From: Lophium mytilinum
Taxonomy: Eukaryota
DNA: 53,691 nt
NCBI GenBank assembly: GCA_010093605.1
Contig: MU004188.1
Coordinates: forward strand, 2,185,918-2,239,608
Direction: 5' to 3'
This document shows, piece by piece, positions 3,748-53,691 of the stretch (positions are counted from its first letter, which is position 1; each line of letters starts with the position of its first letter). The position numbers and the translations under genes were made by a program. The notes under the pieces were generated by a model. It was given only the letters and a program-made list of their open reading frames with translations. It was not told the DNA's origin and did not search any database.

Positions 3748-4812
3748 TGGGGATCTGGAAAGAGATGGGAGGGGTGAGGTAGGTTACAGCATACTGCTGT
3801 TCGAAGCAATTGCTTTGATTGAAGTCACTGGAGGTCTGGAAGTATTCGGTGCGCGTGGTCTTCTTTGCGCAGTTGGGCATACGGCTCCCCTGAGCAAGGA
3901 TACGAGGAGAATTCAAGGGGCGACAGATCGAACGAGTGAAAGAGCCTCTAGGGTAGGGGTGCGTAGGGTGTCTTGGGGTACACATAAGGAGAAGTCAGCG
4001 AACGGTGCAGTTCTTGAAAGGAGTTCGTTGACGTACAAAACGGAAATGTGTCACGTACAGCTTGAGACAGATAAATACCCCGCCTACAATAATACAGGAC
4101 TCAGTCGGGCAAGTCTTGGCAGTGCACAAAAGGTGTGGAAGGCAGAGAAGGCTGCGTCCAAAATTGTAGTCGATTTAACGAGGGAGGGGTTGAGGTTCCG
4201 GTTAAACTGGCTACAATTTTGGTGGCAGTCTCTCCGTCCTCCACATCTTTTGCGCACTGCCAAGACTTGCCAAAAGCAGTATTTGATCACGTGTGGCTCT
4301 ACCGCAAAGCAGAGTACATGGCCACCAGATGGCCTTTGTCTACTTCTGGGCCCTAATAGTCTTTGATATGTATTAGACCTTCAAGGATTCAAATGCCCTC
4401 ATACCTACATGTAAGAATAGGGAGGTTTGGCACGGCTCCCTTTACGTCTGTGCTGGGCAACCTCCATCATCATCCATCATCGTTCGTCCATTATAGTTGT
4501 CATCTTATTCAGATAGGAACCTCATTCTACATGTAGCACCGTAACCTTACGCAGACTGAGGTAGCAGCACATGCGCGAAGTTGCAGACGTCACCAGCTGC
4601 GTTATCATGGACTAGTGCTGATGCTTGCCATAATTCGATCGAATTACCTTTGTAACAGCTCTCTGCGCTTGTAGATCACAGTAACTCTGAGCACTAGCTG
4701 CAGTCCAGGATCTTAGACCTTCCGTCTCATAAGCTGGAGATTTCGCAGCAGATTCAGGCCTTCCTACAACTGCGAGATCAGCAAGAACTACATCCACCAG
4801 AAACCGATCGTC

Positions 4813-5562
4813 ATGGCCCTAGACGAAGCCTATCTCCATAAGATCATTCCAAAGCCCGGGAGTCTACCGAATGTCAAATCCGATGCCTCTCGTGCTTTCG
4901 AAGTCCTCAAAGCAGGTGGCGTTGTCATCGCGCCTACAGAAGTGGGCTACGGACTTCTAGCCTCCTCCACCGAAGCTGTCCAGAAAGCATTCGCTGCGAA
5001 AAAGCGCAAACCCGGACATGCTCAAGGCGTGATCGGCACCTACCAGCTCCATCGAGAGCTACATCTTCTCGACGAGAAGCGATTTGAGATAACTCGGGTC
5101 CTCACGCATGATTTGGACATGTCTTTTGGCGTCGTCGCTCCGTTCCGAGCGGACCACCCGCGTCTGCGGCAGCTCACCCCGGAAACGTTAGCGAACTGTA
5201 CCAAGAACGACACGCTTGGCATGTTCGTTGGAGGCGGCTCTTTTCTCTTCGAGCTAGGGAGACTCAACGACGACGATGGCCAGATAATGCTCGGCTCCAG
5301 CGCCAACATCTCCGGCCAGGGCCAGAAATTTCGCGTCGAAGACATTGAGGACGAGATCAAAGAAGCGGCAGATCTGATCGTGGACTACGGCTTGCAACGG
5401 TATTACACATATGGTCGCGCGTCTATCAATTTCGATTTTGGTAATATGAAGGTGCTGAGGATGGGATCTTGCTACGAGCTCTTCAGAGAACGGATGGCTA
5501 AGTTTTGGGGCGTTGAGTTGCCGGAAGACCCTGATTACAAGACCAGTTCGAAAGAAGAATGA
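4813..5562 (+). CDS. Stand-alone YrdC/Sua5/TsaC-fold protein, divergent paralog (249 aa, intronless)
   Basis: LKAGGVVIAPTEVGYGL (cf. PTETVYGL), AKKRK (KxR), GSSANISG (cf. STSANxSG), ADLIVDYG and VLRMG. There is no C-terminal Sua5 domain. Confidence 0.85.
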   Translation: MALDEAYLHKIIPKPGSLPNVKSDASRAFEVLKAGGVVIAPTEVGYGLLASSTEAVQKAFAAKKRKPGHAQGVIGTYQLHRELHLLDEKRFEITRVLTHDLDMSFGVVAPFRADHPRLRQLTPETLANCTKNDTLGMFVGGGSFLFELGRLNDDDGQIMLGSSANISGQGQKFRVEDIEDEIKEAADLIVDYGLQRYYTYGRASINFDFGNMKVLRMGSCYELFRERMAKFWGVELPEDPDYKTSSKEE

Positions 5563-5596
5563 ATGATTTACTCCTCTTCTATTCTTCCGCTCACTT

Positions 5597-7330
5597 TCAA
5601 GCAGTCTCCTGCGCTTTTGGTCTTCTACTATGCAAAAAGTGCAATAACAGCGTCTCAATAATGGCTAAGCCTCCGAACAATATCAAGATCTGGTACCCGT
5701 ACTGGTATTTCGGTGCGTCATACGTTGGGAACAGTGCCACTGGAACCTTGTCAATCTCTACACTCCAATATCGAGGATGGGGAAGCTTACGGGGGAGCCA
5801 GGATGAGAAACAGTACGTGAAGATATTGCCCGTGGCGACCAAAAGCTGTCTCAAATTCGGATCGCCGGCGCTCAGTTCATGGCCCCAGCCCTACATTCAG
5901 TCAGCGAGGGCATCAATACCTACAGGGAGTCCACTAACGATGACAATAGGCTGGGCGGCTGCTCCGACATATGACAGATAGAATGCGAAGAACTTGGCTC
6001 CCTTGGAGATGTCCCATACCGAAAGCAGAATGTTAGAAATCATGACCAGGACTTGAATTGTAACGATAGCCGGCCATCGATGCCCGGTACGGTCCGCAAC
6101 TATACCAAAGGCAAAGGCAGCTACCACGCTGATAGCGCTGCCCGCAGTGGGCAAGGTGTTGATGTGCACGACGCTATACTTTTCGGCTTTGAGCCATAGG
6201 TTGAAGTAATTTGTTCCTGAGCCAGCTTGAGCCACCATTCTAGGATACCTTTAGTGACTGCGCATTCAAAAGTCAAAACATAACCTACAGGTACGGCAAG
6301 ATGAACGCCCACAGCCGCCAGTTGGTGTATACACCCTTGATGACTCGCAGGGTCAGCTTTTCCGGACCTTTGCGTCCCAACTTCTCGATTCTTTCGACAC
6401 CATACTTTTTGTCCTACACAACTTATCAGCATCGAGCAGTTCGTTTCAAAAGCGTGGGAACTTACGTCTTCACTCCAGTAAAATGCTTTCGTGGTGTGTG
6501 GGAGGTCAGGTATCGCAAATATGCCCCAGATGGCAATCGGGAATGAAATAACTCCGTCGAAGATGAACAGCCACCTCCAACCTGCCAGCCCCAATCTGCC
6601 ATTCAGGCCTTTGTATAGCGCTGCCTGCAAGTAGCCACTAAACATGGATGCGATTGCACTCGTCTGCTCAAAGATGGCGACTCTCTTCGTCAGTTGCGTT
6701 GGTCCGTACCAACCTCCCAGCAACGCCGCATACCCGGGAAATGAGCACGCTTCAGCAAGACCGACGAAAAATCGCAAAACGTAGAGGGTCTTGACGTCTT
6801 TGGCTCCGGCCATAGCCATCACCAGGGCAGTCCAGACTATTTCACAGCTCGGGATCCATATGGAGGGGCGGACGTATTTGAGCTGGATCATTTGGGAGGG
6901 GATGGTGCCGATGATGATACCGATGTTGAAGTAAGTGTTTAGCCAATTGCGTTCGTTCCCGTAGAGTTTGAGGTCCTCTTTCATGCCGCTGACGAATGCA
7001 TTGGTATAGTTGGTTTGATCGAGGTACTTGATGAAGTAACCAAGGCAGATGTATGAGCTGCGGCGGTCAATATCTTTGCTTGGGGTTGCAATTGATAGCG
7101 ACTTACAACAAGTACGTATCCAGTCTCTGTACATAACGTCGGTCTCTGGGATCACCTTCCACCGAGTCCCAGATCAATCCCACCGCCTTCCTCCACCACG
7201 CTGTTCTCCGCTTCTCATTGCTTTCCGATATAGGCGCTTTAGATGAGTCTGCATCAGAGCCACCTTCTACAGGCGAACCAGAAACTGGCTCTGTCTGGAT
7301 AGAGACTTCCTTGTCTTTGCTTTCAGCCAT
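5597..7330 (-). CDS. MFS transporter, Dal5/allantoate (anion:cation symporter) family, Liz1/Fen2/Seo1-like, 511 aa; introns 7058-7106, 6414-6465, 6240-6288, 5891-5938
   Basis: Four 48-52 nt GT-AG introns give a continuous frame (1536 nt). Motifs YFIKYLDQTNYTNAFVSGMKEDL, LRFFVGLAE, GLAGWRWLFIFDG and PDLP. Confidence 0.92.
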
Positions 7331-7899
7331 GTCGAGAAAGTTCTGTGAACCCGATCTCACTGATACGTTTTCCAGAATACCGGGAGTCCGGCACTTAAAG
7401 CTGACGATCAAGCTATAGCGCTGGCCTACATTTCTATCCTTACCGTTCTTTGCAATGCGCCGCTACAATTACGAATCGACTTAGCAGCTTCGCGGCGTGA
7501 TAACACAGGTCTCCGTGGTTTAGAATTTGCACACCACGAGTCATTCTTCTTTACCACGGATGAGGGGCCTGCGTCAGGTACGCATCCACTCTCTCGACTG
7601 GTCCCGTTGTTTCGAGGCAAACGCCATATCGGCAAAAATGTTGTCACAGCGATACCTGTCTCGGTCCAATGAGAACAAACACAACTACTCGCATATGCTC
7701 TGGTGTTGCGTGTTGACAAGACTGCAGGGTGGGTTAGCGAGGCCATGAGCAATACCCGCAGATAAGCTCGCAATAGTGGTTAATAATGTATCCAGCACCA
7801 GGAAGAATGCTTCCGGATTTAAACATGGTAAGATAAGACAAGAATATAGGCATTGCGTTCCAAGCGTTCGGTGTACGACTTGAACTGGTATTCGCAAAT

Positions 7900-9217
7900 A
7901 TGACGACCACTACTACCCAAACCGAGACTGCCACGCCCCAGGTCGCTCCAATCAGATTCGAGACATCCGTAAACTACGATGAGGCTCCGGTAAATGGTTT
8001 CCCTGTTACAGTGGTCAGTTCAGCTTCGCTAATCGCTTAATGTAGTACAAATACGCCAACTACCTACCCCATTTCATCCCCGGTCTCCAACCACCCCTCC
8101 AAGAATTCGAACATCACGACCCCGGAGCACGAGCCGACCCATCCAAAGCCGCTCTCTTGAAAGCCTCCGGAATCACCGTCAACGAGATCACCCCTGCAAC
8201 TGGCACCGAAATCCACGGGATCCAGCTCAGCTCGCTCACCGACGCGCAAAAAGATGAACTCGCCCTCCTCGCTGCTGAGCGCGGCGTCGTCGTTTTCCGC
8301 GGTCAAGACTTTGCCGACATAGGCCCTGAACGACAACGCGCTTTCGGCGCGCATTTTGGCCCGCTGCATGTCCACCAGCATGGTGGTCACGTGAAGGACT
8401 TCCCGGAGCTGCTGCCCGTGTATCGTGATTTCAAGGCTGGGTCGGTGGACAATGAGATCAAGAATAATGTGAGTAGTATTAAATGGCATTCGGATATGAG
8501 CTATGAGATGTGAGTGTTTGATCTGTGGCGGAAGGGAGTGCCAGTTTGCTGATGTGAGGCGTAGCAATGGGATGGGAACGACGATCTTCTTCTCGCTTTC
8601 AACGCCGGTTTCCGGGGGTGATACGCTTTATCTCTCGACTACGGCGGCGTATAATGCGCTCTCTGAAACGTACAGAACGAGGTTGCATGGTCTGCAGGCG
8701 ACGCATTCTGGGTACCAGCAAGCGCAGGTCGCGGAGAATAAGGAGAGGTATATTCGCGAGCCAATTGAGACTGTGCATCCGATTGTGAGGACGCATCCTG
8801 TAAGCCCTGCCGTACTTTTTCTCGGGTTTTGAAGTCTTGAGTTCATAGCTCACGGATTCTTAGGCAACAGGAACTAAATCGCTCTACGTGAACCGACTCT
8901 ACACCCGCAGGATCGTGGGCTTGAAGGAGGAAGAGAGTGCAAGCATTCTGGATTTCCTCTACAACCATATCGAGCATGGCCAGGATTGGCATATTCGCGT
9001 GCACTGGACGCCGGGGACGGTCGTGGTTTACGATAATCGCGTGACGCAGCAGTAAGTGGTTCACGCTACATTTCTATAACCCTTTCCATGCAACGTAGGC
9101 TAACTTAGCGGGCCTAGTTCCGCTCTACGGGACTTTCAAGTCAAAGAAGGTGAGACGAGGAGGCATATGCTCCGCATCACGCCGCAGGGCGAGCGGCCGA
9201 GATTTGACGGCCCTTGA
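7900..9217 (+). CDS. Fe(II)/2-oxoglutarate dioxygenase, TauD/TfdA family (Jlp1/TauD-like sulfonate or sulfate-ester dioxygenase), 358 aa; introns 7990-8045, 8510-8564, 8800-8863, 9052-9117
   Basis: Spliced frame is 1077 nt. It contains GTEIHGIQL, AERGVVVFRGQ, the HxD motif KWHSDMSYE, GGDTL, HPIVRTHPATG, the distal His in DNRVTQHSA and the C-terminal RHMLRIT arginine. Confidence 0.93.
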
Positions 9218-12268: not shown

Positions 12269-13850
12269 CTACAACGTATACCTGAAATCCGGGTGCCTAT
12301 CTCCCATCTTGCCCGCGTCAATTTCCTTGATACGCTCTTCAATGGACATGTTCTCGCGCTTGCGATTCAGACCGCGCAGAAGGATGAACATGGTGAAGTA
12401 GCCCACCGCAGCCGTGGTCATAGTACTCAAAGAAATCGCGTGGCCGATAACATAGCGTCCCTCGGAGTTCTTCAAACGATAGATCTGTCCAGCCATGATA
12501 CCCGCGCTGTTTCCGATGGTCTGCTGCAGTCCGATAGCTGTCGCGCGCTTGAAGTAGCCGGCGTTGCTGTTGATGATCCAGGTGACGTTCAAGCCCACGA
12601 CGCAGTAGATACCAGTGGCGGTGACGAAAGTCGCGAAATATAGTACAGCCGTTTTATCCATTGAAACTCCGAGCTGCAGGGCGTATCCGATCGCGGTGAC
12701 GAGGGCCATTGGGACCATGAAGACAGCTCTGCGATTGAAGTGGTCCGATGCGAATGAAACGACGATATAGACAATGGATGCCCAGATATACACCGGTACA
12801 GTAAGTAGTTGGGTGTGGACGCTTGAGTATCCAAAGCCCTTGATGATGGAAGGCAGGAAAGTTGAGAAGCCAAACGAGCACGTGTTGGCGCAAAACTGGC
12901 AGAACGACGACAGCCACACTTTAGGGTCCTGGAAAGCGTACTTTACTTCTTCCTTGTCGAATGTCTCGATGGAGAGCGATGCGCCTTGGTACAAGCTTGC
13001 GTTTCCGGTTCGAGCGCGCATAATGACCTTTTCGTCCTCGCGGAGCCACCACGCCTTCTCGAAATTGTCGGGGAGTAGGAAAATAGCCATTAGGCCGACG
13101 ATCATGGAGATGACGCCCTCGATCAAGAAAAGCCATCGCCAACCTGCAAGGCCCCTGACGCCGTGGAGATTCGTCAGACCATAAGCAAGTAGGCCTCCGA
13201 AGGCGCCAGAGAGAGCTGATGCCACGAAGAGGTACGAAATGCGGCGAGCTTGCTCCAACGGTTGGTAAAAGGTGCTGAGATACAGCGTCAAGCAGGGAAA
13301 GAGCCCACTCTCGAAGCAACCCAGGAGTAGACGAGTCGCAATGAGGCCAGCATAGTTGTTGACGAAGGCTGCGCCGATGATTACAGCACTCCAGCAGATG
13401 ACGAAGAATGGAATAAGACGACTTGGGCGCAGTTTCTTGAGTGCCAATGATGCCGGTACTTCGAAGGCGATATATGTAACTGGATTGAAGTTAAGAGGTT
13501 GAAGGCAGTCGACGAGAGAAGTTCCATACCATAAAATAGAGTCACTGCAACGTTCAACCTATTACCGGTCAGGTTGAGATCCTTTGTCATTCCAGCAATA
13601 GCGGCGTTTCCTATTGGACCGTTAGTATTTGATATCGATGTTCAAGCGGAGTGTGAGACGTACCAATGTTGCTTCGGTCTAGGTATGCTACCAGGAAGAA
13701 AAGAACCATCATTGGCGACAGCATCAGATCCAGCTTCCGAATTAGGCGTTTCTCAGCAACCGGATCGATATATGTCTCGCCTTCAGTGACCTTCAGAGCT
13801 TCCCCCTCGCTGATGGTGGCATCTTTGGAGATGCCCTTTTCGGTGTCCAT
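12269..13850 (-). CDS. MFS transporter, Dal5 family, Tna1 (nicotinate/carboxylate permease)-like, 492 aa; introns 13611-13663, 13480-13529
   Basis: Spliced frame is 1479 nt. Motifs EKRLIRKLD, AYLDRSNIGNA, FEVP, RLLLGCFESGLFP, GLAGWRWLFLIEG and the C-terminal GDRHPDFRYTL. Confidence 0.93.
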
Positions 13851-14004
13851 TCTTAAAGCTCAAAGAATCGAATTGATGTGTCGAGGTGGAGTAGTCGCAA
13901 CTCTCTGTCCTAGTGTCGTGCCATCTCCAACCTGAAGTCGTTGCAGTAGTTATACACCTCATCCCAGATGGCGACGATGTTGTTTGACCGATCATGAAAA
14001 TTTG

Positions 14005-14160
14005 CCGATGAGAAGATGAGGAAGGGATCGGAGAACGAACCATGGGACGATCCGTCGGCATTTCCTCGTATCTATTCTGCCAGCCTCGCCCATGACTAGG
14101 ACGCCTCCCCGCAAACGGAGCTCCGAAGCCAACGGGAAACAAATATCGGGGAATGCCCAT
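14005..14160. promoter_or_regulatory. CGG/CCG-rich divergent promoter; candidate Zn2Cys6 binding sites
   Basis: The 342-bp MFS/TF intergenic region holds a perfect palindrome CGGAGCTCCG (14116-14125), CCGTCGG and ATATCGGGGAAT (14143-14154). Confidence 0.4.
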
Positions 14161-14192
14161 GAGCCCCATGCTTTGTCCTCTCCACCCTCCAA

Positions 14193-16560
14193 ATGCCGAA
14201 CGACACCACGAAACTCGATCCGCCGCGACGGAAACGAGGCCGACACGCTGTTGCGTGTATTCCTTGTCACAGGCGGAAGCAGAAGGTACGCATTACTACT
14301 CTTCATCGTCGGAATGAATCCTGTGTCCTGAAGGTTCAGAGACTTTGATCGGACACACGAATGCGCGTCACGTGATCTCAATACCTCTCCTTGCAATGAG
14401 CATAGAAGAATGAGCATGTCTGGCTAACAGTCCGTCAATGTCTAGTGTGACGGTGCTTACCCTTGCTTCAATTGCAAGCGTCGAAATGTCGCTTCGCGCT
14501 GTGCATACATCGAGGAAGCGCAACGGAGGCATGCAAGCCCGGCTGCAGGTACTCAGAACGGTCGCCCACACCCAGCAAACGAACCCCAAAATGACGGAGA
14601 AAGCAACCATGAAGCCTCGGCCAGCGCTGATCACGACTTTGTTGGGGCTTCTGAGAACTCTGTTCATACTGCAGGCGCGGATGATTCCTCAGACCCCCCG
14701 GTTGGCGACCTCTTCAAAAGCCGAGATGCCCCCTCGTTCTTTGGGTCGTCTTACTTTGGCCCTCAAGCAGCGGCTAAGATTATGGAAGCTCCAGCGCCTG
14801 ATCTAACTTCTGGTATTCGATCTCAGATGGCCAGTTCTACACACTCATTCCGTGACGAAGGAGGCCCTTTTTCGCAAATATGGGATCTCCTTGGTCTATT
14901 GCCACGGAAGAAGAGTACAGTAGACAGGATTACTGATTGCTTTCTTAACGAGCTCAACTGGACTATAGATGCTGTCTGTCCGGCGTCGTTCAGATGCAAG
15001 TACGACGATTTCTGGGAACGAAAGTTCGGATTCGATGACTTCGCTACCATAGACTTGCGCTGGCTGGCACTTCTCTTCATTGTGCTAGCCTTCGGGGTGT
15101 TACTCGATTGTCCGCGTCCTAAGAATAAGGAAGTTCAGAGAGAGCTTCAAGATACGTCTCTGCGATTCTACTGGGCTGCAAGACGGGCTATCGTAATTGC
15201 TCCGACGTTTTACGGCGAGTCAACTGATCTGGTCAGAGCTGGAGTGCTCGTTACGCGTTATTTGATATACACCCGACGAGTGCCTGAGTCGTGGCTTACG
15301 ACTAGCTTTGCGATGGTGCGTATGACTAGACATTCCCCTTTCGGACTATCAACTAATGGTGCATTCGCTACTTAGCGTATGGCGCAAGCGCAAGGCATGC
15401 ACATCGATGGAGAGCGTTGGCGGCTCCCCCGAAAGGAAACCGAAACCCGCCGCAGACTCTGGAGCCATCTATACATGCTCGACAAGACCATTGCTTTGGC
15501 TCTGGGCCGTCCGTTTGCTATCCTAGATCAGCAATGCCTTGTCAAGAAAGCATCGAACGTCTGGCTAGACGACATGAGCGATGGGGAAGCTGCCAGTACC
15601 TCTGAAGCGCCTCTTAGCGAGCCCAAGCTGAGCGTGTGCACTGCTTTAGCCCACGACCTCGCCATCATCGTGGGGAAGATTCAAGAACACTGCTTTGGCT
15701 TATTCACAGGTTCCTACGACATGGTACTCTCCCTAGATGAAGAAATTGTAACTTGGGAAGAAAAGCTCCCTCCGTACTTCAAACTCCATGACCCTGACAC
15801 ATCAAAAGATGGTATCCTTCCATTTCTCATCTGGAATCGGCTGCATCTCCACAGCATGTATCACTTCGCTAGAGTCACGCTTCATCGGCCGTATCTTCTT
15901 CGGCAATCGATCACGAACCGATTTCGACACAGTCATGACGTTTGTATAGCGTCGGCTTGCGCAGATCTTGACATGAGATTGAAGTATCTCTCGCAGCGAC
16001 TCAATGATCGGCTAAAATGGTGTCTCGGCCCTCACCATCTCTTCAACAGTGCCCTCGTTCTAGGGATCATTGCCGTTCGCGAGCCTTCTTCTCGCCGATC
16101 CATAGCTATCCTTGAAGATCTCGAAGCGTACTGCGAGATGCAGAAGAATGACATCTGGATCAATGAATTCGCTCTCGCAGAGGTCAAGATAGTTGAACTC
16201 TGTATCAAGCGTGCGAGAAAGCTTCGAACTTCAGTGCAAAGCTCGTCTGCGGCAGCCCCTCAATCCTCAACTATTCCCACTCAAGCAACCGAGACAACGG
16301 AAGGCTTCAGCTCTGCAAGCACGGAGACAATTGCCCCAACGGCGCCTCCCCATGCACAACCAGCTCCACAGCCGCATTTCGATTATGGCGCTAGCGAACC
16401 CCAAGTCATGCCTTCGTTCACCCCAGGCGACAATGCTCAACCATGGCAAACCGCATGGGCAGACCCATCTTTCTCCCTTCTCGAAGCAGCGGACTTGCAG
16501 CACTGGGAATACGTGCTGGACAACATAACGCAAGACCAGATGAGCTTCATGGGCCAATAA
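14193..16560 (+). CDS. Zn(II)2Cys6 transcription factor with fungal-specific TF (middle homology) domain, 715 aa; introns 14286-14445, 15316-15375
   Basis: Splicing reconstitutes ACIPCHRRKQK|CDGAYPCFNCKRRNVASRC, which is absent from the ORF track. Also RMAQAQGMH and ETRRRLWSHLYMLDK...LGRP. Confidence 0.93.
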
Positions 16561-16603
16561 ATTTCTACCTAAACGCCGATTTTATGCATCCTGATGTGCG
16601 CCC

Positions 16604-17600
16604 TCACACCTTCAATGGCTTATCCTCATATTCCACTTTGTTCACCAAACTCCCCAACCCATGGCTCATCACGACCCTCAAATCATCCCCATCCTTCAAA
16701 TAAACCACCGGCGTCTTACTAATCCCAATCCCATGCGGCGTTCCAGTCATAATCACCGTCCCCTTCTCCAACGTAGTTCCCTGGCTCAGATACGCCACGG
16801 TCTCCGCAATACCAAAGATCATATCATCCGCCCTCCCCTCCTGCATCACCTCCCCATTCAAAAACGTCCTCAGCTCAATGCGCCCTGGGTCCGGAATACT
16901 CCGGGCAGCAACCACACACGGCCCCAACGGCGCGAACCCATCGAAACCTTTCCCAAACCCCCACTGCGCACCGCGGAACTGATGCGTTCGTGCCGTCACG
17001 TCGTTGGAACACGCGTAACCGAGCACGTAGTCCATGGCAGTCTCTTTGCGCACGTTCTTTGCGTCTTTGCCGATTACGATCGCGAGCTCGGCCTCGTAGT
17101 CCGCCTGTCCGTCCGTCGCTTGGTAGGGGATCACGACGGGCGCATTGGGGGCGCCGAGGCAGGATGCGGGCTTGAAGAAGAGGGTTGGGTAGTCGGGGAG
17201 CTCCATGTGCATTTCTTTGGCATGGTTGCGGTAGTTGAGGCCGATGCAGCGGATTGTGCCGACTTCATTTCGGGAGAGGGGAGCTAGGAGGGTGCGGATG
17301 GTGAGGATAGTGGCGGTGGGGCGGGTTGAGGGATCGAGGATGGTGCTTGAGGTGAAGATGCGGACGCGGACGGGGTTGGAGGCTGTGAGGGCGGCGCCGA
17401 CTGTAGGGGGTTAGGAGGAAGTTGGTGTTGACGGAGAGGGTGGCAAGCTTACTGTCAATCTCTGCATCGACGGGTTCGCCGGTGTATTCTTTGTTGTCTT
17501 CTGCTGCTATGAAGCGGACTAGACGGTTCCAGCTCTGCGATAGCAATTAGCTCGATTACACTCATTGCATAAGATCCAATCGAGCACTTACAGTAGCCAT
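16604..17600 (-). CDS. Fumarylacetoacetate hydrolase (FAH) superfamily protein, FAHD/Fmp41-like, 295 aa; introns 17535-17591, 17401-17452
   Basis: A 9-nt first exon (ATGGCTACT), then SWNRLVRF, IRCIGLNYRNHAKE, PTLFFKP, DYEAELAIVIGK, NDVTAR, GKGFDGFAPLGP and TGTP. Confidence 0.93.
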
Positions 17601-23232: not shown

Positions 23233-25642
23233 TCATACAAGTCGAATGATGACTTCGTCCGAGCCCAAGTCAGTATCCAATTGAAATCCCTCGGGCGACA
23301 ACCCCTCGATATTGCAAGTTCCCGCCATCTTTTTCCAATCTCTTTCTTCCCAAGCAGCGCAACCGACACGTTCAAATTCGCCATCTCCCCGGTTGGTGGG
23401 AACTAACATAATGCAAACCACCCACCCTCGCTTAGGATATCCCGGACTTGGTTGGGTTTTATTCCAACTGCTTATACTGGTGCATACATCTGATGCGTCA
23501 ACAGCGCCCTCTTCACAATAGGGGCACCACGGAGGATGACTGTAAGACAAGATCCCCAAGCAGTACACCTCATGAGCATGGCCCTCGTTTATGTCGAACA
23601 CATATCGACCGCTCGGACGTTTGCCTTTGGCGTCTAGCCATTCCGCGGGCCAATCCTTTGCGTCACTCATATTCCCCGTTCTGAAGATGGTCCTAGTGTT
23701 CACTAGAAAAGGTGCTTCTGTAGCCCAATGCAATGGGGGGGGGCTACCGGGGGGTATTTCGGCTTTCCTAAGCGTTCCTCGCATGAAGACGTGGGGGCTG
23801 TGATATGCATAGCCATTTAGCCCTTCAGGTTGAATCACGCGTGCAATACTAGTAGGTATGGGTCTGGTTCTCGTACGATGCCGTGACATTTCCCCTGGTA
23901 ATGGGTGGATGAACTGGCGATAAGGACTGCAAACAATTCTTCCAGTGAAAGATGTCCAGGAAAACGATGGGCCGGATACTTTGGTCGGGCGAGGAAAAAG
24001 ATTTGGAAATTCGAAGGTCTGAACTGAAGCGCTCGGTATCCACAGGAAGTTTCGCAAGTCGCTGTCAGAGTCTTTGGCTGCACCCTGGTGGCCCACAATG
24101 AGTCCCCATACGAAACTGAGCCCGGTTGCTTGCTCAATAGCTTTTGCCATACCCCATATTGCGTTCGAACGGTCTGTGTCTATAGTCAATTGTCGAGCCG
24201 TGAAGGTCTCAATGACTAAGTTCCAGCCCTCAGCATCGATGAGGTGTTTGGCTCCAGGTACTAGACTCCTTTGGATGGTTTGGTAGATTGGATGATAGTC
24301 GGGTATTCTCGAGATTGGGAGGCCGCCGTCAGTTATAAGAGGATCGAGCTCATCCGCGCAACCCGAAATACAACACCACAATACCGTGTCATTCAAGAAG
24401 ACAAGCTGTCGAGTGCTCAGGGCTTGCTCCTGCATTATCCATCCCCTTTCCCAAAGAGTCGAATTTTGCCGAGCTCTAGGATCGAAATTGCTACTTCCGA
24501 TTCTGAGGGAGACTTCATCTGAGTCTAGCTCATCGGCGAAATCTCGTATTACTGGCAATTTCAGGTCACTTTGCCGAGTTTCGAGACCATTTCTCGGCGC
24601 AAAGAGACCATCTACCCCGTAAATAGACTCCGTTTCCAGTCTCTCCGCATCAGTTGCGTATATGGTATGTGGTTTCGCTGCAAAGATGGTAAAGAGTGAC
24701 CCGCGATAAATGTGGCACATCTTCGCGCTTTCTGCGTCCCAATCGTCTGGTGAGTCTTGGATGATACATAGCGAGTCAATCCATAAATACCTAATCTTCA
24801 ACTTTCGAGTCACGAGAACAGCGTCACAGAAGTTAGGCGGCATGGAATCCAGGGGTATGCTTGCCTGTCTATCATCGAGCGTTGCTATGGTGGTCGTCAT
24901 AACATGGTTGCTCCATCGGTGACTTAGTGTTAGATACACCCCAGTCTGAGACGGCTCGGTTTGGTGTAAGAACGGATGTTCATCGGTAGATCCGACGTTA
25001 ATGACTCGGCTGGGGAGCTTCCTGTCACTAGATGCTTGGAAGGAGTGACAATCCTTGTGTTCAGATAGACATGTTTCTAGCCAGTAGTTCGACAACGCAA
25101 AGGCTGATTCGGAGCCGGTGCTCCAGTCTTCGATACTCATGCAATCTTGTAAAACAGATTCGAGCTTAGTAGCTGGGTCGGGTGTGCTCGTTAGTAGCCG
25201 ATTCGTTCAAAAAGGGACTGATCTAAGAATCATCGGACATACGCAGCTTTGATGAGTGGATATACAAAGTCAGTCCAGTAGCATGTAATTCGGAGATATA
25301 TCCTAGCTGCAGATTGTATGAGACATTGCTCTCCCATTGTGGCGAAATCTTGGCTTCGAAAGAAAGATGCAAATGTTGATAAGCTGTAGATCCTGGATGG
25401 ATGTTGAAGAATTCCGACTCTCGTTTTAATGTTCGCAAGAGTTTCACACAAAGTTGGCAACCTGAGGATGCCGAGGCTTCCAGTGCATCGAGACTGGGTT
25501 GGTGAGTTATGGTGAATTCAAAAATTGTTACCTCTCCATGATGATTTGGAGAGCGTTGGGCATAGGCCTGGAGATCATAGGGGCCTTTCTCCCAGTGCTG
25601 CATGTATGCATCTCGGAAATGGTTGCAATGATCGCAGAACAT
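23233..25642 (-). CDS. Heterokaryon-incompatibility (HET domain, TOL-like) protein, 779 aa; intron 25173-25242
   Basis: WLETCLSEHKDC, LPSRVINV, YLTLSHRW, DAVLVTRKLKIRYLWIDSLCIIQD, MCHIY and LWERGWIMQEQALS. The N-terminal CDHC...ASSGCQLC exon is joined in frame by a GTATGT...CTAAC...CAG intron. Confidence 0.92.
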
Positions 25643-26790: not shown

Positions 26791-26972
26791 GCCCCATAGT
26801 TCTAACAGCTGGATGAATTCCGATTCGTGCCACTTTGAACCTCGAAAACAGACATCCTCACAGATTGGGCGCCCAATTACAACGTGCGAGCTTCTCGTGC
26901 ATTCCCTATAGGCAACTTGAAACGCTCTCGGCCTGTCTCACCTTCCCGCACTATTACGAGTCAGCCATCACC

Positions 26973-28481
26973 ATGTCTTCGCGATCAAGCTTTGCACGTG
27001 GCCTAGCCCTTGTCGCCACGAGCTCGCTTGTTGCCGCTGGGCCGTGCGATCTGTACGCCACCGGCGGGACGCCTTGCATCGCCGCGCACAGCACCACTCG
27101 CGCCTTGTACAGCAGCTACACCGGCCCTCTCTACCAGGTGAAACGCGGCTCCGACAATACCACGACCAATATCGCGCCGCTATCCGCCGGCGGTGTCGCC
27201 GAGGCCGCCGCCCAAGACTCCTTCTGCGCCAGCACGACATGCCTTATCACCATCATTTACGACCAGTCGGGCCACGGGAATCATCTTACCCAAGCATCGG
27301 CCGGCGCCTTCAGTGGCCCGGAATCCAATGGTGCTGACAACTTGGCCAGCGCGACAGGCGCGCCCGTTACGCTGAACGGGCAGAAGGCGTACGGCGTCTT
27401 CATCCCCCCCGGCGCTGGCTACAGCAACAACGCCGCGAGTGGTACAGCTACAGGCGACGCGGCGGAGGGCATGTACTCCGTCCTTGACGGGACCCATTAC
27501 AATGCTGAATGCTGCTTCGACTATGGCAACGCCGAGGTCAGCAGTCACGATACGGGCAACGGCCACATGGAAGCCATCTACTTTGGCACCAACACCATCT
27601 GGGGCACCGGCTCCGGTAGCGGCCCATGGATCATGGCCGATCTCGAGAACGGCCTGTTCTCTGGCGCCAGCACTGGCAACAACCCCGACGACGCCTCCAT
27701 CTCCTCCCGCTTCGTGACTGCCGCTGTCAAGGGCGGCCCTAACAAGTGGGCAATCCGCGGCGCCAATGCTGTGTCGGGCGCGCTGTCGACGTACTACAAC
27801 GGTACGCGCCCAAATGCGTCTGGCTACAACCCGATGAGCAAAGAAGGCGCCATCATTCTCGGTATCGGCGGCGACAACAGCCCCAATGCCCAGGGCACCT
27901 TCTACGAGGGCGTCATGACCACCGGCTATCCGTCCGACGCCACCGAGAACTCGGTGCAGGCCAACATCGTCGCCGCCAAGTACGCCGTCACGTCGTTGAC
28001 TAGCGGCCCGGCCCTCACGGTTGGCTCCTCCATCTCGCTACGGGCCACCACGGCCGGCTACACGACCCGCTACCTCGCCCACACCGGCTCCACCGTCAAC
28101 ACGCAGGTGGTCTCGTCATCCAGCACCACCGCCCTCAAGCAGCAGGCCAGCTGGACGGTGCGCACCGGCCTGGGCAACAGCGCCTGCTTCTCGTTCGAGT
28201 CCAAGGACACGGCCGGCAGCTACATTCGCCACTCCGCCTTCCAGCTGCTGCTCAACGCCAACGACGGCACCAAGGCGTTTTACGAAGATGCCACCTTCTG
28301 CCCGCAGACCGGCCTCAACGGCCAGGGCAACTCGATCCGGTCCTGGAACTATCCCACCCGCTATTTCCGCCATTTCAACAACGTGGCCTTTGTCGCGAGC
28401 AACGGCGGTGTTGACGCGTTTGATGCCACCGCCTCGTTCAACGACGATGTGAGTTGGGTGCTCAGTACTGGCTTCGCTTGA
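26973..28481 (+). CDS. abfB: Secreted alpha-L-arabinofuranosidase B (GH54 catalytic domain + CBM42), 502 aa, intronless
   Basis: Signal peptide then GPCDLY...PCIAAHSTTRALY, CCFDYGNAE, GHMEAIYFG, WIMADLENGLFSG and GGDNS...GTFYEG. The C-terminal AbfB domain includes YIRH and RYFRH. Confidence 0.97.
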   Translation: MSSRSSFARGLALVATSSLVAAGPCDLYATGGTPCIAAHSTTRALYSSYTGPLYQVKRGSDNTTTNIAPLSAGGVAEAAAQDSFCASTTCLITIIYDQSGHGNHLTQASAGAFSGPESNGADNLASATGAPVTLNGQKAYGVFIPPGAGYSNNAASGTATGDAAEGMYSVLDGTHYNAECCFDYGNAEVSSHDTGNGHMEAIYFGTNTIWGTGSGSGPWIMADLENGLFSGASTGNNPDDASISSRFVTAAVKGGPNKWAIRGANAVSGALSTYYNGTRPNASGYNPMSKEGAIILGIGGDNSPNAQGTFYEGVMTTGYPSDATENSVQANIVAAKYAVTSLTSGPALTVGSSISLRATTAGYTTRYLAHTGSTVNTQVVSSSSTTALKQQASWTVRTGLGNSACFSFESKDTAGSYIRHSAFQLLLNANDGTKAFYEDATFCPQTGLNGQGNSIRSWNYPTRYFRHFNNVAFVASNGGVDAFDATASFNDDVSWVLSTGFA

Positions 28482-30454: not shown

Positions 30455-31020
30455 CTCGAAGCGCAGGGGTTGCAGTACTTGCAAGCCACCGAGCAGCCTC
30501 AACGCGTGACTGAGACCTTCGAAGAAGCCGCGGCCAAGTACATAAGAGACACCAACAAGCCTCCAAGCGCGGATGGGGTCTTCGAGGAANNNNNNNNNNN
30601 NNNNNNNNNNNNNNNNNNNNNNNNNNNNNNNNNNNNNNNNNNNNNNNNNNNNNNNNNNNNNNNNNNNNNNNNNNNNNNNNNNNNNNNNNNNNNNNNNNNN
30701 NNNNNNNNNNNNNNNNNNNNNNNNNNNNNNNNNNNNNNNNNNNNNNNNNNNNNNNNNNNNNNNNNNNNNNNNNNNNNNNNNNNNNNNNNNNNNNNNNNNN
30801 NNNNACCAACAAGCCTCCAAGCGCGGATGGGGTCTTCGAGGAAGCTGCGGCGAAGTACATGCGAGACACCGAGAAGCCTCAACGCGTGACTGAGACTGAG
30901 AGCTTCGAAGAAGCTGCGGCCAAGTACATGCAAGACACCGACAAGCCTCCAATCGCGGCTGAGGCATTCATGGAGCTTGCGGTCAAGTACCTGCGAGAGA
31001 CTGATAAGCCTTCGCGATGA
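30455..31020 (+). repeat. Coding minisatellite with a ~63-nt unit (FEEAAAKYMRDTxKPxxxxxx)
   Basis: Units such as TTCGAAGAAGCCGCGGCCAAGTACATAAGAGACACCAACAAGCCTCCAAGCGCGGATGGGGTC occur on both sides of the gap. Confidence 0.9.
30590..30804. other. Assembly gap (215 N) inside the 63-nt repeat
   Basis: A run of N with identical repeat sequence on both flanks. Confidence 0.99.
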
Positions 31021-31061
31021 AGCTGACTACCCCGGCGATCGAAAGTGAGTTGGTGCTCTAT

Positions 31062-31200
31062 ATCTGGTGCTTTCCATCAGTAATCCGGTGTTTTCATCGG
31101 TGGTCTCATGATGCTTTTCATCGTTCATCCGGTGCCTTCATCGGTCAGTAATCCGGTGTTTTCATCGGCCATCATTCATCGGACAGTGTCCGGTGCTTTT
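31062..31200 (+). repeat. Short non-coding direct-repeat cluster
   Basis: Exact 23-mer CAGTAATCCGGTGTTTTCATCGG at 31078-31100 and 31146-31168, plus partial TCCGGTGCYTT copies near 31063, 31127 and 31189. Confidence 0.8.
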
Positions 31201-31299
31201 TCGTAGCCTATACTCGCCAGAGCATAATGGACACTCTTCCGCTCGTCAGCATCGTGCCTTGGAAAGTGAGAGACACATCTCCCCTATGTAGTGCTTTCC

Positions 31300-34200
31300 T
31301 GTATATCAAATGATGGGGAGTGTGAAAGAATGAGCGAGGAATGGAGTCAATGTTTGGAATCAGTCCGGGTGTGTCGTGCGGCTGGCATCGCCTATAGGCA
31401 GATTGTGAGGCCCAAATGTGAGGCGGTGAGTCTAGCTACGCGTTATAGTTTTCCCGTGCCCCGTCGTGAGGTTTTTCAGGACGCTTCACCACAATCCATC
31501 CTCCAACAAACAACACCATCAGTAAGTCCATCAACGCACTCGATTATCTCGGTTGGCGTGTTCTTGGCAACTGAGAGCTTGCCGAGGGCTAGACGATGTC
31601 TGTCGGAGGAGCCAGACTGGCAATGGTGTGGCCTCAAAAGTAATGGGCACACTTATCGACTGTAAAAATGAGAGGTCCATTCCGTAAGGACGTAATCGTT
31701 GCAGTGATTGTCAGCACGCATTTGATCTCCAACGACGAGGTCTTCCTGTCTAGACTCAGATGTTTCAGATATCCTCTTCGGCCATTTCGCTGGTGACTGG
31801 TGAAATGAGTATCTGGGCGAATACGAAATTCGAGAATTTGAGGATCAGCATCTCCATTCGGGAGCTCTGCCTCAATCTCGTTCGGGCTCGTTTAGAGAAC
31901 CTCCTGGTCTCGAGGTTGTCGGAGGAGAGGCAAGGGAGAGTACGAGCAATTGAATTGGAAATCTATTCAACTTCTCAGAGCAGTTTTGTTCGGAACCAAG
32001 AAGTAAGCGTGGGGTTGCCCGGGCTGCAGTCATCTGGATATTTTCTGACGGAAGGGCCCATCTAGTCAGGAATTGAGCTCGGCGACTTTGCTGGACGCCT
32101 GAATTAAAAAGAGAAGTACGGTCTAGCTATTCTACCATCTTGCCGTCGAATCGGAATCAGAGAACGCGAGGAGAATCACAGACGCCTCAACGTATGAGAT
32201 AGTCGTAACGGGCTGAAGTACGAACTTCGAGGCATGGAAATGCACAGCGAGCAGTAAGAAGTTTTCTAGAGACAGCTACTATCGTCTCTGTTCGATTGGC
32301 TGGTAGCTGGACGAAAGAGTCTTTATCTTAAGCAACTTCTGGTTGGTCATTTGATCCGAGGCAAAGCACTCACGGCGACTCACCACTTCTTCTAGGAAAA
32401 TACCCATGCTTCCGGTGGCTCGGAATGGGTGCCTCCGGGCTCGAAGTACACTGGATCAAACGCAAAGAGGGCTGCACTTGGCGAGGAAGACGATGATAGC
32501 GGGCTATTGCATCTGGCACCAGAAATGCCTTCGCGTGAGTGTCTGTAGAATTGCCGCCCCCCACAGCGATGATTTCTGATTACCAGCAGCCAGACGGCCC
32601 ATCTAGCTTTACTTTATTTACGATCATCTCGATCGTTTCCGAACCCTTATCTTTCTCAGTCCTCTACCATATCTCTGGCCTTCAAATACGCGGTCATTGC
32701 CGAGAAACCCTTCAGCAGTTCCGTTCTTGCGGGTGCATGCACGTCGCCTAGAAGTCACCTTGTATCAATCGAGTACGCTGCCAGAGATCGGGCTGAGAAC
32801 TGATCTCCAGGGACAGCATTCAAGATGGGCTACCCTGAAAGTCCACTCAACTCTTTCATTTCTCTTGCAACAAAAATCAGCTGCCAACATCTGGCTTGTC
32901 TCTTCTGCTTCCCGACGCATTGACGCTCAACTCATTCAATAGTCAGCCATGAAATTTCTCTCGCAACGCAGCTATCATCATCTGTAGGTAGCTCGCTGAG
33001 ACTACTTGCCGCATTTGCAAGAACTCGAACGTCGCGTTAGCCTTGCAATGGTGCTCGTCGCTAGTCGGCACATTTTTGATGCATCAAGATCCTCGCCTAG
33101 CCACCATTTCCAACAATCAGGTGAGTTTTCTCGCCGCGGGGCGTTCCAGACATCTCGTGCGTCACCGGGTTAATTCGGCTTTCATTCAAGACGAAGTAGG
33201 ACGTAGCAGACGCGCCTGGTTTCGAAGGCGCAATGGATGAGCTCGAAGGGTGGCGCTGTACCGATGTCGAGAGAAGTACTTATAGCGTGTCGGAGGTGAG
33301 CTTTTCTGGAGTTGGGCGGTGACCTTCTCTAATGGTTCGAGTGATCGTATGCAGGGAGCAGCTAAACTACGGCCTAGGGTGTACGCTTGCGAGTACTTGA
33401 ATGTCCGTTTTCCCTCAGAAGCTTCTTCTCGGCAAAGACGGTATGACGGCGTTCGCAGTGTGCTTGGTATTTCTGCACTTCTCCGCGGTAGATTTCTGTT
33501 ATGGAGGCTTACCAGCGTGTACGAAGGGGACGAATGCAGTCACCGAGTATTTTCGAGCGCGTTGATATGGCTGCGGCCATGCTTCTGTTTACGAGGGTGG
33601 ATTGTTGTCCAGCACAGTCCTAACTGTCCTTCTCTCCAGCACCGTATGCTCCAAGGAACAATATACCCCCAGAAACGCACCGCACTTTGGGCCTATCTTA
33701 TTAGAGGGGAGTTGAGCGTTAAATGTAGCCGCGGTTGTAGTCGAATCGCTGGAGAGACAGGCACTCACTTTCCTGGGAGGGAGATAAGCGAAGTCTACAA
33801 ACCGCCCCAAGACTTATGACGAGGTTGCGCACGCCCTTGAAGAGATACCTCGTGACTTTCATGGTTCTAGGGTAGTGTGGTTGAAGTCGGGTGGTCTTCA
33901 GGGAGGCTTCTGATACCTCCTAAAGTCGATGAGCGACAGTAGTCGCAACGCATATAGTCGTGGCCCGCAAGTCATATCGCATGCAGTCCTAGACGTCGTG
34001 GGAGTATTGGTTTGCAGTCAGCTTCTGATGTAGGCGGGAGGAAGGCTGGGTGCATTACGTCTCCCCCGAAATGAAACCCGAGTAATGACAACGGGACGGT
34101 CGACGCTTACCGATGAATTCTAAGAGACGACTCCACACTAACTCGCTGTCGTGCCTCTCCAGCTGACTCAAACGTGTGCACTGAACGTCAGCTTGCGTTC

Positions 34201-49639: not shown

Positions 49640-50860
49640 TCCCACTCTCCTCAGCGGACTCTCCCTGCATAACCAATGATATCGTAGCATCCAGCTCGGC
49701 CGGTATTGAAAGATCCGACTGCCTCCGCAGTTCACTGCGTACTAGTAAGCCGCCTTGCGGCGACACGAGCTAGTTCCCTCCTCAGTGTCTAGATCATCAC
49801 CATCACCCCAAGAGTGGTCAGAGGACTCTTCCCAGTTGCTTCCCGATGGCTTATCATCCAGCTCAGCGAGTGTTGAATGATGCGGCTGCCTCCGCTATAC
49901 TTTCTTTGGATGCGACTCGCCTTGCAACTACCGCGAGCCAGTTCCCTCGTTGGCTACCACATCACTACCCCAGCCCGTTGTATAGTTTGCGACATCCGGA
50001 TTAGCTAGTTCTAAGCCACCCGACTGTCTCCGCCATCCTTTCCGTGGCCGCAATTCGCCTTGCAGCTGCAGTAAGGCAATTCCGTGTCAGCGACCACAAT
50101 ACCACCCGCACCCTCGCCCTCCTGAGCGGACTGTTCCAGAAGATTGGATAATGCCATAGGATCCAGCTCAGTCAGTGTTGAAAGATCCGACTCCTTCCGC
50201 TACTCTTCCCGTGCTTGCAATTCGCTTTGCAGCCACAGCGAGCCGATTTCCTCGCGGGTGACCAGATTGCCACCACTATCCTCATGCAACTGAACGGATT
50301 TCGCCTGCGTGTTTGGGTATGTCCTAACGTCCAGCTCAGTCAGTGTTGAGCAATCTGCCAGCCTCCGCTATCTTTCGGTAGTTGCAGTTCGCTTTGCAGC
50401 CACAGCGGGCCAATTCCCTCGTGAGTGACCAAATCGACACCACCATCCTCCGGCACCTGAACGGAGCTTGTCTACGTGTTTGGACATGCTCTAACGTCCA
50501 GCTCAGTAAGTGTTGAGCGATCCGCCTGCCTCCGCTATCATATCCGTGATTGCAATTCGCCTTGCATCCTTAGCGAGCCAGCTCCTACGTGCGGATCGCC
50601 ATCGCCACCCTCAGACACCTAAACGGATCTCACCCGAGTGTTTGGGAGTGTCCGAACGTCTAGAGTAGTAAGTGTAGCAAGATCCGACTGCCTCCGCTAC
50701 CTTTTACGTGGTCCCAATCCGCTTTGCATCAACAGCGAGCCACTCAGCCAATTTCCTTGTGGGTGCGCACATTGTCACCACTACCCTCAGACTCTTGATC
50801 GGATCTCGGCTGAGTGTTTCGGAATGTCAGAAGATCCATCCAGGTCAATCTCTTAAGCTT
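49640..50860 (+). repeat. Diverged tandem array A, ~167-bp period, 7-8 units
   Basis: Core CCAGCTCAGTCAGTGTTGA..GATCCGACTGCCTCCGCTA. The CCTCCGC-like anchor lies at 49722, 49889, 50027, 50194, 50362, 50529 and 50691 (spacings 167, 138, 167, 168, 167, 162). Confidence 0.9.
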
Positions 50861-53597: not shown

Positions 53598-53691
53598 TTA
53601 GGGTTAGGGTTAGAGTTAGGGTTAGGGTTAGGGTTAGGGTTAGAGTTAGGGTTAGGGTTAGGGTTAGGGTTAGGGTTAGGGTTAGGGTTAG
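53598..53691 (+). repeat. Telomere repeat (TTAGGG)n at the chromosome end
   Basis: 15 full hexamers plus TTAG run to the end of the window with the G-rich strand pointing outward. Two variant TTAGAG units at 53610 and 53640. Confidence 0.98.

Follow-up and report, generated by a model that had tools for sequence, protein, structure and literature searches.

Organization of the Locus

The window analyzed here, a stretch of 53,691 nt of the Lophium mytilinum genome (positions 2,185,918 to 2,239,608 of contig MU004188.1, GenBank assembly GCA_010093605.1), contains three closely spaced genes between positions 4813 and 9217. They encode a YrdC-like protein, a transporter of the major facilitator superfamily (MFS) and a TauD-like dioxygenase, which an initial annotation had tentatively combined into a candidate pathway for organosulfur or carbamoyl compounds. 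The analysis presented below favors, with slightly better than even confidence, a different arrangement: a sulfur-scavenging MFS/TauD gene pair next to a separate YrdC-like gene that is probably not functionally coupled to it.

The YrdC-like gene (4813-5562, plus strand) is a single-exon open reading frame (ORF) of 249 codons ending with a TGA at 5560-5562; its product matches PF01300 and is exactly identical to the protein P0361. A spacer of 34 bp (5563-5596), read directly off the sequence, separates its stop codon from that of the convergent ACS/Dal5-type MFS gene (5597-7330, minus strand; start codon 7330-7328, stop codon 5597-5599; PF07690). The approximate exon blocks of the MFS gene are 7330-7280, 7201-7108, 7057-6465, 6413-6288, 6238-5939, 5890-5792, and 5737-5597, and the seven exact-match peptide blocks rebuild the annotated 468-aa L. 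mytilinum protein P0241. The MFS gene shares a divergent intergenic region of 569 bp between start codons (7331-7899) with the gene of a TauD/Jlp1-type Fe(II)/2-oxoglutarate dioxygenase (7900-9217, plus strand; ATG at 7900, TGA at 9215-9217; PF02668), whose five exons (7900-8004, 8046-8510, 8566-8799, 8864-9051, and 9118-9217) exactly rebuild the annotated 363-aa L. mytilinum protein P0362. Genes of the window carry short GT-AG introns and find their top protein matches in Mytilinidiales. These gene models confirm the earlier description of three intact, tightly packed genes with a 34-bp convergent and a 569-bp divergent gap.

Two details of the models vary between annotations. The segment 7202-7279 near the N-terminus of the MFS protein (78 nt, in frame) is modeled as an intron in L. 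mytilinum and as coding sequence in Mytilinidion resinicola. Likewise, the first TauD intron (7990-8045) offers two in-frame donors, GTAAAT at 7990 or GTTACA at 8005, and the TauD annotations of the two species differ by the five residues VNGFP according to the donor chosen. A single RNA run yielded only the short contigs 4700-5098, 5315-5465, and 8343-8509, which is too sparse for any reading. A literature search on six locus tags of the MFS/TauD pair or the YrdC-like gene found no paper, and a search for a fungal YrdC gene cluster with a dioxygenase found nothing relevant.

A Recurrent Transporter/Dioxygenase Gene Pair

The conservation of the MFS/TauD arrangement was surveyed by searching the protein database with the largest exon of each of the two genes and comparing the source locus tags of the matches. 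Orthologues of both proteins with adjacent locus tags were identified in eight other fungal species (tags given as TauD/MFS): Zasmidium cellare (PRZ48_012422/23), Pestalotiopsis fici (PFICI_00072/73), Capronia epimyces (A1O3_10299/300), Penicillium taxi (N7495_000147/146), Fusarium falciforme (NW757_011736/35), Aspergillus nanangensis (FE257_004463/62), Rasamsonia emersonii (T310_0769/68), and Sporothrix eucalyptigena (SEUCBS139899_002570/69). We take these eight species to span Dothideomycetes, Sordariomycetes, and Eurotiomycetes. Consecutive accessions of the two proteins are found in M. resinicola, L. mytilinum itself, and Xylariaceae sp. FL0804, and in at least 12 further species relatives of both lie on contigs of identical size. 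As it recurs in so many species, the arrangement is more than chance. The view of transporter and dioxygenase as an import-and-oxygenase unit, which formed one part of the initial annotation, is thus backed by pairing in at least 11 other species.

Sequence Features of the Dioxygenase and the Transporter

Among structures in the PDB, the dioxygenase matches PlaO1 (7QTD; E = 2.1e-38) and Escherichia coli TauD (1GQW; E = 2.6e-38) best, followed by phenoxypropionate dioxygenases (1e-30 to 1e-33) and alkylsulfatases of the AtsK/Rv3406 type. An alignment of 36 sequences covered the clade of the window protein, to which its members are 64-92% identical, and another clade that includes yeast proteins and reaches 43-50% full-length identity. 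The iron triad H183, D185, and H331, aligned to TauD H99, D101, and H255, is invariant in all 36 sequences, as are T210, R346, and R350, which align to TauD T126, R266, and R270; H145, aligned to TauD H70, is conserved in at least 90%. In TauD, T126 and R266 are presumably 2-oxoglutarate-binding, while H70 and R270 are taken to anchor the sulfonate. With the residues for iron, 2-oxoglutarate, and sulfonate anchoring all kept, the earlier assignment as a TauD-like dioxygenase holds.

Compared with its characterized relatives, the protein shares the fold as well as these three sets of residues with TauD of E. coli and Jlp1 of Saccharomyces cerevisiae. It differs in scoring below the taurine dioxygenase equivalog cut-off (NF007104, 185 vs 313 bits), in its amine-contact positions (see below), and in forming a clade of its own that is 43-50% identical to the clade holding the yeast proteins. 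Judged from its sequence, it looks like an active TauD/Jlp1-type enzyme, competent to oxygenate an anionic substrate that departs in detail from taurine. Jlp1 is described, in the accessible text of two papers, as the sole fungal sulfonate-degrading enzyme verified by experiment (PMC5303821, PMC5857272).

The best NCBIfam match of the MFS orthologue P0363 is TIGR00893 (2A0114, ACS), with 119 bits vs a cut-off of 395, and relatives of the transporter are named “ACS family pantothenate transporter,” Liz1, or Fen2 by their sources. We assume that the sulfonate carriers Soa1 and AstA belong to the same Dal5/ACS family as the window MFS protein. To the Soa1/AstA and Dal5 (ACS, TC 2.A.1.14) permeases the window protein is tentatively linked by the MFS_1 domain, by TIGR00893 as its top match below the cut-off, and by relatives named ACS, Liz1, or Fen2, a likeness drawn from family models and the names of relatives. 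Soa1 and AstA are reported as carriers of sulfonate and sulfate from a large, much-duplicated fungal MFS family (PMC5303821).

A Candidate Sulfur-Scavenging Module

Comparable gene pairs under sulfur control appear to exist in Neurospora crassa. According to the available part of one study, five TauD genes, including tdo-4 (NCU07610) and suc-2 (NCU07819), are induced more than 59-fold upon sulfur starvation, and the regulator CYS-3 binds and activates tdo-4 and suc-2 as well as the MFS genes NCU07609 and mfs-29 (NCU07820), the latter a predicted pantothenate transporter (PMC8550094). As the gene numbers are consecutive, we infer that NCU07610/NCU07609 and NCU07819/NCU07820 are two TauD/MFS neighbor pairs; adjacency as such is not stated in the accessible text of that study (PMC8550094). 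The pairs tdo-4/NCU07609 and suc-2/mfs-29 would then show the same composition as the window pair, a TauD gene beside an MFS gene with a pantothenate-type transporter annotation.

With its established gene structure, conserved pairing, and retained catalytic residues, the window pair would represent a sulfur-scavenging module, for which we infer both the substrate class and the sulfur regulation. In this model, the compound imported by the MFS permease would be small and anionic, with aliphatic sulfonates and sulfate esters as the likeliest classes. Hydroxylation by the dioxygenase at the carbon that adjoins the sulfur group would give a product that decomposes, releasing sulfite (or sulfate) and leaving an aldehyde. 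As a means by which filamentous fungi scavenge organosulfur compounds, the pair is a good candidate.

A real pair devoted to a carboxylate or another anion, and serving carbon or nitrogen catabolism, detoxification, or metabolite tailoring, is the alternative that has to be weighed here. Some observations weigh against a sulfur compound and in favor of such a substrate. At the positions of TauD Y73 and N95, which we take to be the contacts to the amino group of taurine, the dioxygenase carries Gly and Ser; its substrate should therefore deviate from taurine in detail, and may be a carboxylate. The best PDB match is, by a hair, PlaO1, followed by the phenoxypropionate dioxygenases, all of which act on non-sulfur substrates, and the relatives of the permease are named pantothenate transporters and not sulfonate carriers. 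In addition, no match to the CYS-3/MetR-type motif ATGRYRYCAT (with up to one mismatch) was found in the 569-bp promoter region 7331-7899, which sets the window pair apart from the CYS-3-controlled Neurospora pairs, although the motif is Neurospora-derived and its absence is weak evidence; in the whole window, 11 matches were counted vs 16.8 expected. Conversely, the presumed sulfonate-anchoring His and Arg of TauD are conserved in the alignment of 36 sequences, TauD and the AtsK/Rv3406-type alkylsulfatases are among the PDB matches of the dioxygenase, and the sulfonate carriers Soa1 and AstA presumably share the family of the permease. The strongly induced TauD genes of the two N. crassa pairs and their MFS partners are direct CYS-3 targets (PMC8550094), and sulfonate carriage is documented within the large fungal MFS family (PMC5303821). 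A non-sulfur role of the pair is thus regarded as unlikely, and scavenging of organosulfur compounds remains the preferred reading.

Family Identity of the YrdC-Like Protein

In a Pfam search with E values up to 0.01, the 249-aa YrdC-like protein matched only PF01300 (47 bits vs a cut-off of 25.1) and the SUA5 C-terminal domain was not found. The scores also remain below the equivalog cut-offs for TsaC, the threonylcarbamoyl-AMP synthase, with 53.8 vs 123.2 bits for TIGR00057 and 16.3 vs 175 bits for NF007919 (TsaC type 1); bacterial members of the family reach 42-50 bits and likewise stay below the TIGR00057 cut-off. The possibility that the gene is simply the ordinary t6A enzyme of the genome, which would have emptied the earlier pathway proposal, is made improbable by the missing SUA5 domain and by the scores below both TsaC cut-offs. 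The reported gene content of fungi likewise speaks against it, as those with the family also have Sua5, at least in the accessible part of the source (PMC10321239), and the YrdC-like gene would therefore stand beside, not instead of, the fungal Sua5.

The active site is fully retained. The residues K63, R65, S163, and N165, which make up the KxR/SxN tetrad, are invariant in 31 fungal sequences (alignment A1) and in 20 fungal and bacterial sequences (alignment A2), and S162, the TsaC signature position preceding the SAN motif, is at least 90% conserved. Both features correspond to criteria found in the available text of an earlier study, in which the tetrad served as a filter and the Ser as the TsaC signature position (PMC10321239). 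The family further possesses a conserved C-terminal segment (DYGLxxY...R.G.CYE...LP.DP) that is restricted to the clade.

An AlphaFold2 model of the protein (pLDDT 90.8) gave 3L7V as its top fold match (TM-score 0.73), followed by TsaC2 and Sua5 (0.65-0.69). In profile searches, 3L7V was matched with 7.5e-19 by the family profile and with 1.8e-11 by the single protein, while the family profile matched Sua5-type proteins with 1e-7 to 1e-5, YciO (1K7J, 1KK9) with about 1e-5, and E. coli YrdC with 0.15. The structure 3L7V, obtained by structural genomics, is that of SMU.1377c of Streptococcus mutans, which is hence the closest solved relative in both sequence and fold; identity is, however, only about 20%, and the alignments end near query residue 190, leaving the C-terminal segment uncovered. 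Like the family, YciO stands alone as a YrdC-fold paralogue and has kept its active site, but its profile match is only about 1e-5. In addition, the rnm neighborhood of the YciO type was not seen, as no RNase AM-type protein occurred among the 33 Pfam-scanned (larger) clusters of neighboring ORFs described below.

The family is small, as the profile retrieved few clusters from a library of 1.84 billion representatives (117 at E ≤ 1e-30 and 486 at E ≤ 1e-10). A FastTree phylogeny of 147 rows, built from every second fungal match and without three bacterial rows that contained in-frame stops, separates the 62 fungal from the 85 bacterial rows in a single bipartition with a support of 100. In each of five bacterial genomes, the YrdC-like gene is the third PF01300 paralogue, scoring 41-49 bits beside two paralogues with 140-184 bits. 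Taken on sequence grounds, the family is a distinct clade shared with Actinobacteria and Proteobacteria, and it is not Sua5, housekeeping TsaC, or YciO. In common with TsaC/Sua5 it has the YrdC fold, the KxR/SxN tetrad, and the Ser at the signature position; it is distinguished by scores below the equivalog cut-offs, the lack of a SUA5 domain, the additional C-terminal segment, and its standing as a third bacterial paralogue that occurs in catabolic operons.

The clade of bacterial and fungal sequences is not new as such. It was already noted in 2023 as a horizontally acquired fungal “TsaC” in a paper whose accessible portion states that Leotiomyceta (e.g., Aspergillus) encode Sua5 as well as a “TsaC” with complete tetrad; the closest sequences to the latter were those of Amycolatopsis bartoniae (47.5%) and Verticiella sediminum (41.9%), and an inter-domain transfer was suggested (PMC10321239). 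Both bacteria are among the bacterial loci identified here, with 48% and 42% identity, and Aspergillus bombycis, an example species in the available text of that paper, is among the YrdC-like matches listed. The “second TsaC” of Aspergillus-type fungi falls into the third YrdC paralogue family.

Bacterial Genomic Context of the YrdC-Like Family

Neighboring ORFs within 6 kb were clustered for 88 bacterial loci, 80 of them from named genomes (gathered by a contig scan with the narrower alignment A3) and 8 out of 22 bacterial-type metagenome loci. The other 14 metagenome loci were left out as short or duplicate (including L009, L011, L012, L014, L016, L017, L019, L021, L022, L024, L026, L027, and L028). 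The most frequent neighbors encode TctC binding proteins (35 of the 88 loci), LysR regulators (18), and lyases of the isocitrate lyase (ICL)/phosphoenolpyruvate-mutase type (15). Large and small aconitase subunits were found at 15 and 13 loci, GntR regulators at 13, AMP-dependent ligases and PrpD/MmgE proteins at 12 each, short-chain dehydrogenases/reductases at 9, and IclR regulators at 8. Less common were CoA-transferase III (5), PrpF (4), hydroxymethylglutaryl-CoA (HMG)-lyase-like proteins (4), hydantoinase A (4), and hydantoinase B (3). Four neighbor clusters (2, 12, 13, and 14) lacked a Pfam match, ran antisense to real genes in loci of high GC content, and were treated as spurious; the aconitase and PrpD counts are therefore lower bounds.

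Two operon types recur. In the first, a LysR regulator gene stands before a unit of TctC, YrdC-like, CoA-transferase, HMG-lyase-like, and large and small aconitase genes; in the second, a GntR regulator gene precedes ICL-like, large and small aconitase, MFS or TctC, AMP-ligase, and YrdC-like genes. Across the loci, the gene occurs mostly in operons for the breakdown of organic acids and in some for ureido compounds. Such surroundings agree with an enzyme of small-molecule catabolism rather than with a translation factor. In a minority of loci, genes for hydantoinase/oxoprolinase A and B or for isochorismatase-type amidohydrolases adjoin the YrdC-like gene (L047, L104, L039, L102, and L108), a set of enzymes that presumably resembles the breakdown of N-methylhydantoin and N-carbamoylsarcosine. 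At several loci, two YrdC-like genes lie close together, in tandem in L025 (9287-10678), L067, L107, and L108, in divergent orientation in L047, and with a PrpD gene between them in L076, which hints at either a hetero-oligomer or a recent duplication.

These data bear on the proposal, found in the accessible text of PMC10321239, that the fungal protein is a working second threonylcarbamoyl-AMP synthase, i.e., a TsaC gained by horizontal transfer and serving as a backup for Sua5. The complete tetrad, the signature Ser at S162, and the fold matches to TsaC2 and Sua5 would be expected of such an enzyme. The scores below the TIGR00057 and NF007919 cut-offs do not agree with it, nor do the bacterial genomes, in five of five of which two PF01300 genes with high scores are present in addition to the family member. 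In the bacterial operons, the gene is accompanied by genes of the TctC, LysR, aconitase-like, ICL-like, PrpD, and CoA-ligase types instead of translation genes. Moreover, the family is patchy in fungi and present in several paralogues per genome, with at least two each in Sporothrix curviconia and Penicillium psychrofluorescens. That a conserved tetrad is no guarantee of a TsaC role is illustrated by YciO, which, as far as the available part of the report goes, is not the t6A enzyme despite its conserved active site (PMC12506659). A second TsaC is accordingly considered quite unlikely. Since the family sits in bacterial catabolic operons, the label “threonylcarbamoyl-AMP synthase” has probably been propagated too far, as happened with YciO. 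Going by its fold and the KxR/SxN tetrad, the enzyme would most likely use ATP to adenylate a small molecule at a carboxy or carbamate group, and this chemistry, once worked out, would be a reaction new to the YrdC fold.

Linkage of the YrdC-Like Gene to the Gene Pair

In M. resinicola, the TauD (KAF2813636), MFS (KAF2813637), and YrdC (KAF2813638) proteins have consecutive accessions, and the three proteins are 90-97% identical between this species and L. mytilinum. Outside these two genomes the association dissolves. Six species occur in both the list of YrdC matches (the best 120 of 228) and the list of TauD orthologues, and in five the YrdC-like gene is apart from the pair: it is found on a different contig in Thozetella sp., S. 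curviconia, S. eucalyptigena, and Sporothrix brasiliensis, and in Xylariaceae sp. FL0804 its accession is about 1470 away from those of the pair. Among species in which TauD and MFS genes are adjacent, a listed match to the YrdC clade exists only for M. resinicola, L. mytilinum, Xylariaceae sp. FL0804, and S. eucalyptigena, and only in the first two does the YrdC-like gene adjoin the pair. Fungal metagenome loci agree with this picture. A contig scan with the YrdC alignment yielded three informative loci (L001, which equals L002; L005, which contains L004; and L006), and at none of the three was a TauD or Dal5-type MFS gene detected within 10 kb of the YrdC-like gene with Pfam and our own hidden Markov models (HMMs), for which the recovery of the window genes by the TauD and MFS HMMs served as positive control.

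The recurrent linkage of all three genes that the proposal of the initial annotation calls for was thus largely not found, as the triple was seen in two closely related Mytilinidiales only, and its proposal that the YrdC-like enzyme was recruited into the pathway is not supported, the gene being unlinked in five other species. Of the earlier interpretation, the MFS/dioxygenase unit is supported and so, with some reserve, is the distinction of the YrdC-like protein from the ordinary t6A enzyme, while the membership of the YrdC-like protein in the pathway is not. The position of the YrdC-like gene beside the pair amounts to one lineage-specific adjacency, about what chance allows, and probably reflects a subtelomeric juxtaposition in Mytilinidiales and not functional coupling. 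A real, widely conserved gene pair is hereby separated from a neighbor that only seemed to belong to it.

What speaks against this separation is, first, that the TauD/MFS/YrdC triple is kept in both Mytilinidiales genomes and that the co-occurrence data, resting on the best 120 of 228 YrdC matches, are incompletely sampled. Second, one marine bacterial lineage possesses a tight operon of a TauD-fold hydroxylase gene, a YrdC-like gene, and a gene for an NCS2 (xanthine/uracil-type) permease, with gaps of 4-30 bp between the hydroxylase and YrdC-like genes. The operon was confirmed with Pfam in three metagenome contigs (L015, L018, and L020), the hydroxylase was confirmed by HMM in a Rhodospirillaceae metagenome-assembled genome (L097), and three of the excluded loci (L014, L019, and L021) show the same ORF layout. 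In principle, a YrdC-like enzyme can therefore work together with a TauD-fold hydroxylase and a permease. In L015, a creatinase/prolidase-type M24 gene and a gene of the arylmalonate-decarboxylase/racemase family lie divergent from this operon (4965-6905).

The marine hydroxylase was also considered as an orthologue of the fungal TauD protein, which was rejected: the two are 21% identical with a pairwise E value of 0.006, and the bacterial enzyme is FrbJ-like (5EQN, 1.6e-45). A search of all 1034 neighboring ORFs with the TauD HMM revealed a TauD-fold protein at only 4 of the 88 bacterial loci, all of them from the marine lineage. Being confined to a single lineage and a different hydroxylase subfamily, the operon raises the probability of a three-gene pathway only a little.

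In such a pathway, the MFS permease would import a ureido-, carbamoyl-, or amino-sulfonate, the YrdC-like enzyme would adenylate, carbamoylate, or de-carbamoylate it, and the dioxygenase would cleave it. Adjacency of the three genes in L. mytilinum and M. resinicola, the intact catalytic tetrad, and the marine operon are in line with this idea, and the bacterial family members beside hydantoinase A/B and isochorismatase-type genes would fit ureido chemistry. On the other side, L. mytilinum and M. resinicola are close relatives in which a common gene order is expected by descent alone; the YrdC-like gene is unlinked in Thozetella, the three Sporothrix species, and Xylariaceae sp. FL0804 and lacks the two partner genes in the fungal metagenome loci; and the bacterial parallel involves a hydroxylase that is not an orthologue. 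We therefore regard a three-gene pathway as very unlikely. A more far-reaching version, in which the clade would be a new class of small-molecule enzymes that use ATP to adenylate carbamate, N-carboxy, or ureido groups, take no part in tRNA modification and, in Mytilinidiales just as in the marine operon, cooperate with a TauD-fold dioxygenase and a permease in degrading an N-carbamoyl- or ureido-substituted sulfonate or acid, appears equally improbable. Two functionally separate neighbors, the scavenging pair and the YrdC-like gene, thus remain the favored interpretation.

Other Features of the Window

The window ends with 15.8 tandem copies of GTTAGG, a TTAGGG-type telomere repeat (53597-53691), and the locus is therefore subtelomeric, at about 44-49 kb from the chromosome end. 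Downstream of the TauD gene, a second Dal5-type MFS gene (12272-13558, minus strand; 6.7e-33 with our own MFS HMM) is followed by genes for a Zn2Cys6/fungal-specific transcription factor (14446-16560, plus strand) and a protein of the fumarylacetoacetate hydrolase family (16604-17410, minus strand), and the region 12269-17410 may represent a small catabolic cluster. The same subtelomeric window also contains a HET-domain gene (23233-25206) and a gene for an alpha-L-arabinofuranosidase B with GH54 and AbfB domains (26817-28481). From about 31000 to 46800, about 15 kb lack any stop-to-stop frame of at least 180 aa and the tested ORFs gave no Pfam match; this region may represent either decayed subtelomeric DNA or a long non-coding stretch. 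Within it, a strong purine skew is evident at 42-44 kb (GC skew about 0.2, AT skew 0.22-0.27). Near the telomeric end, at 50162-50580, a unit of 167 bp is repeated 2.5 times with an 80% match.

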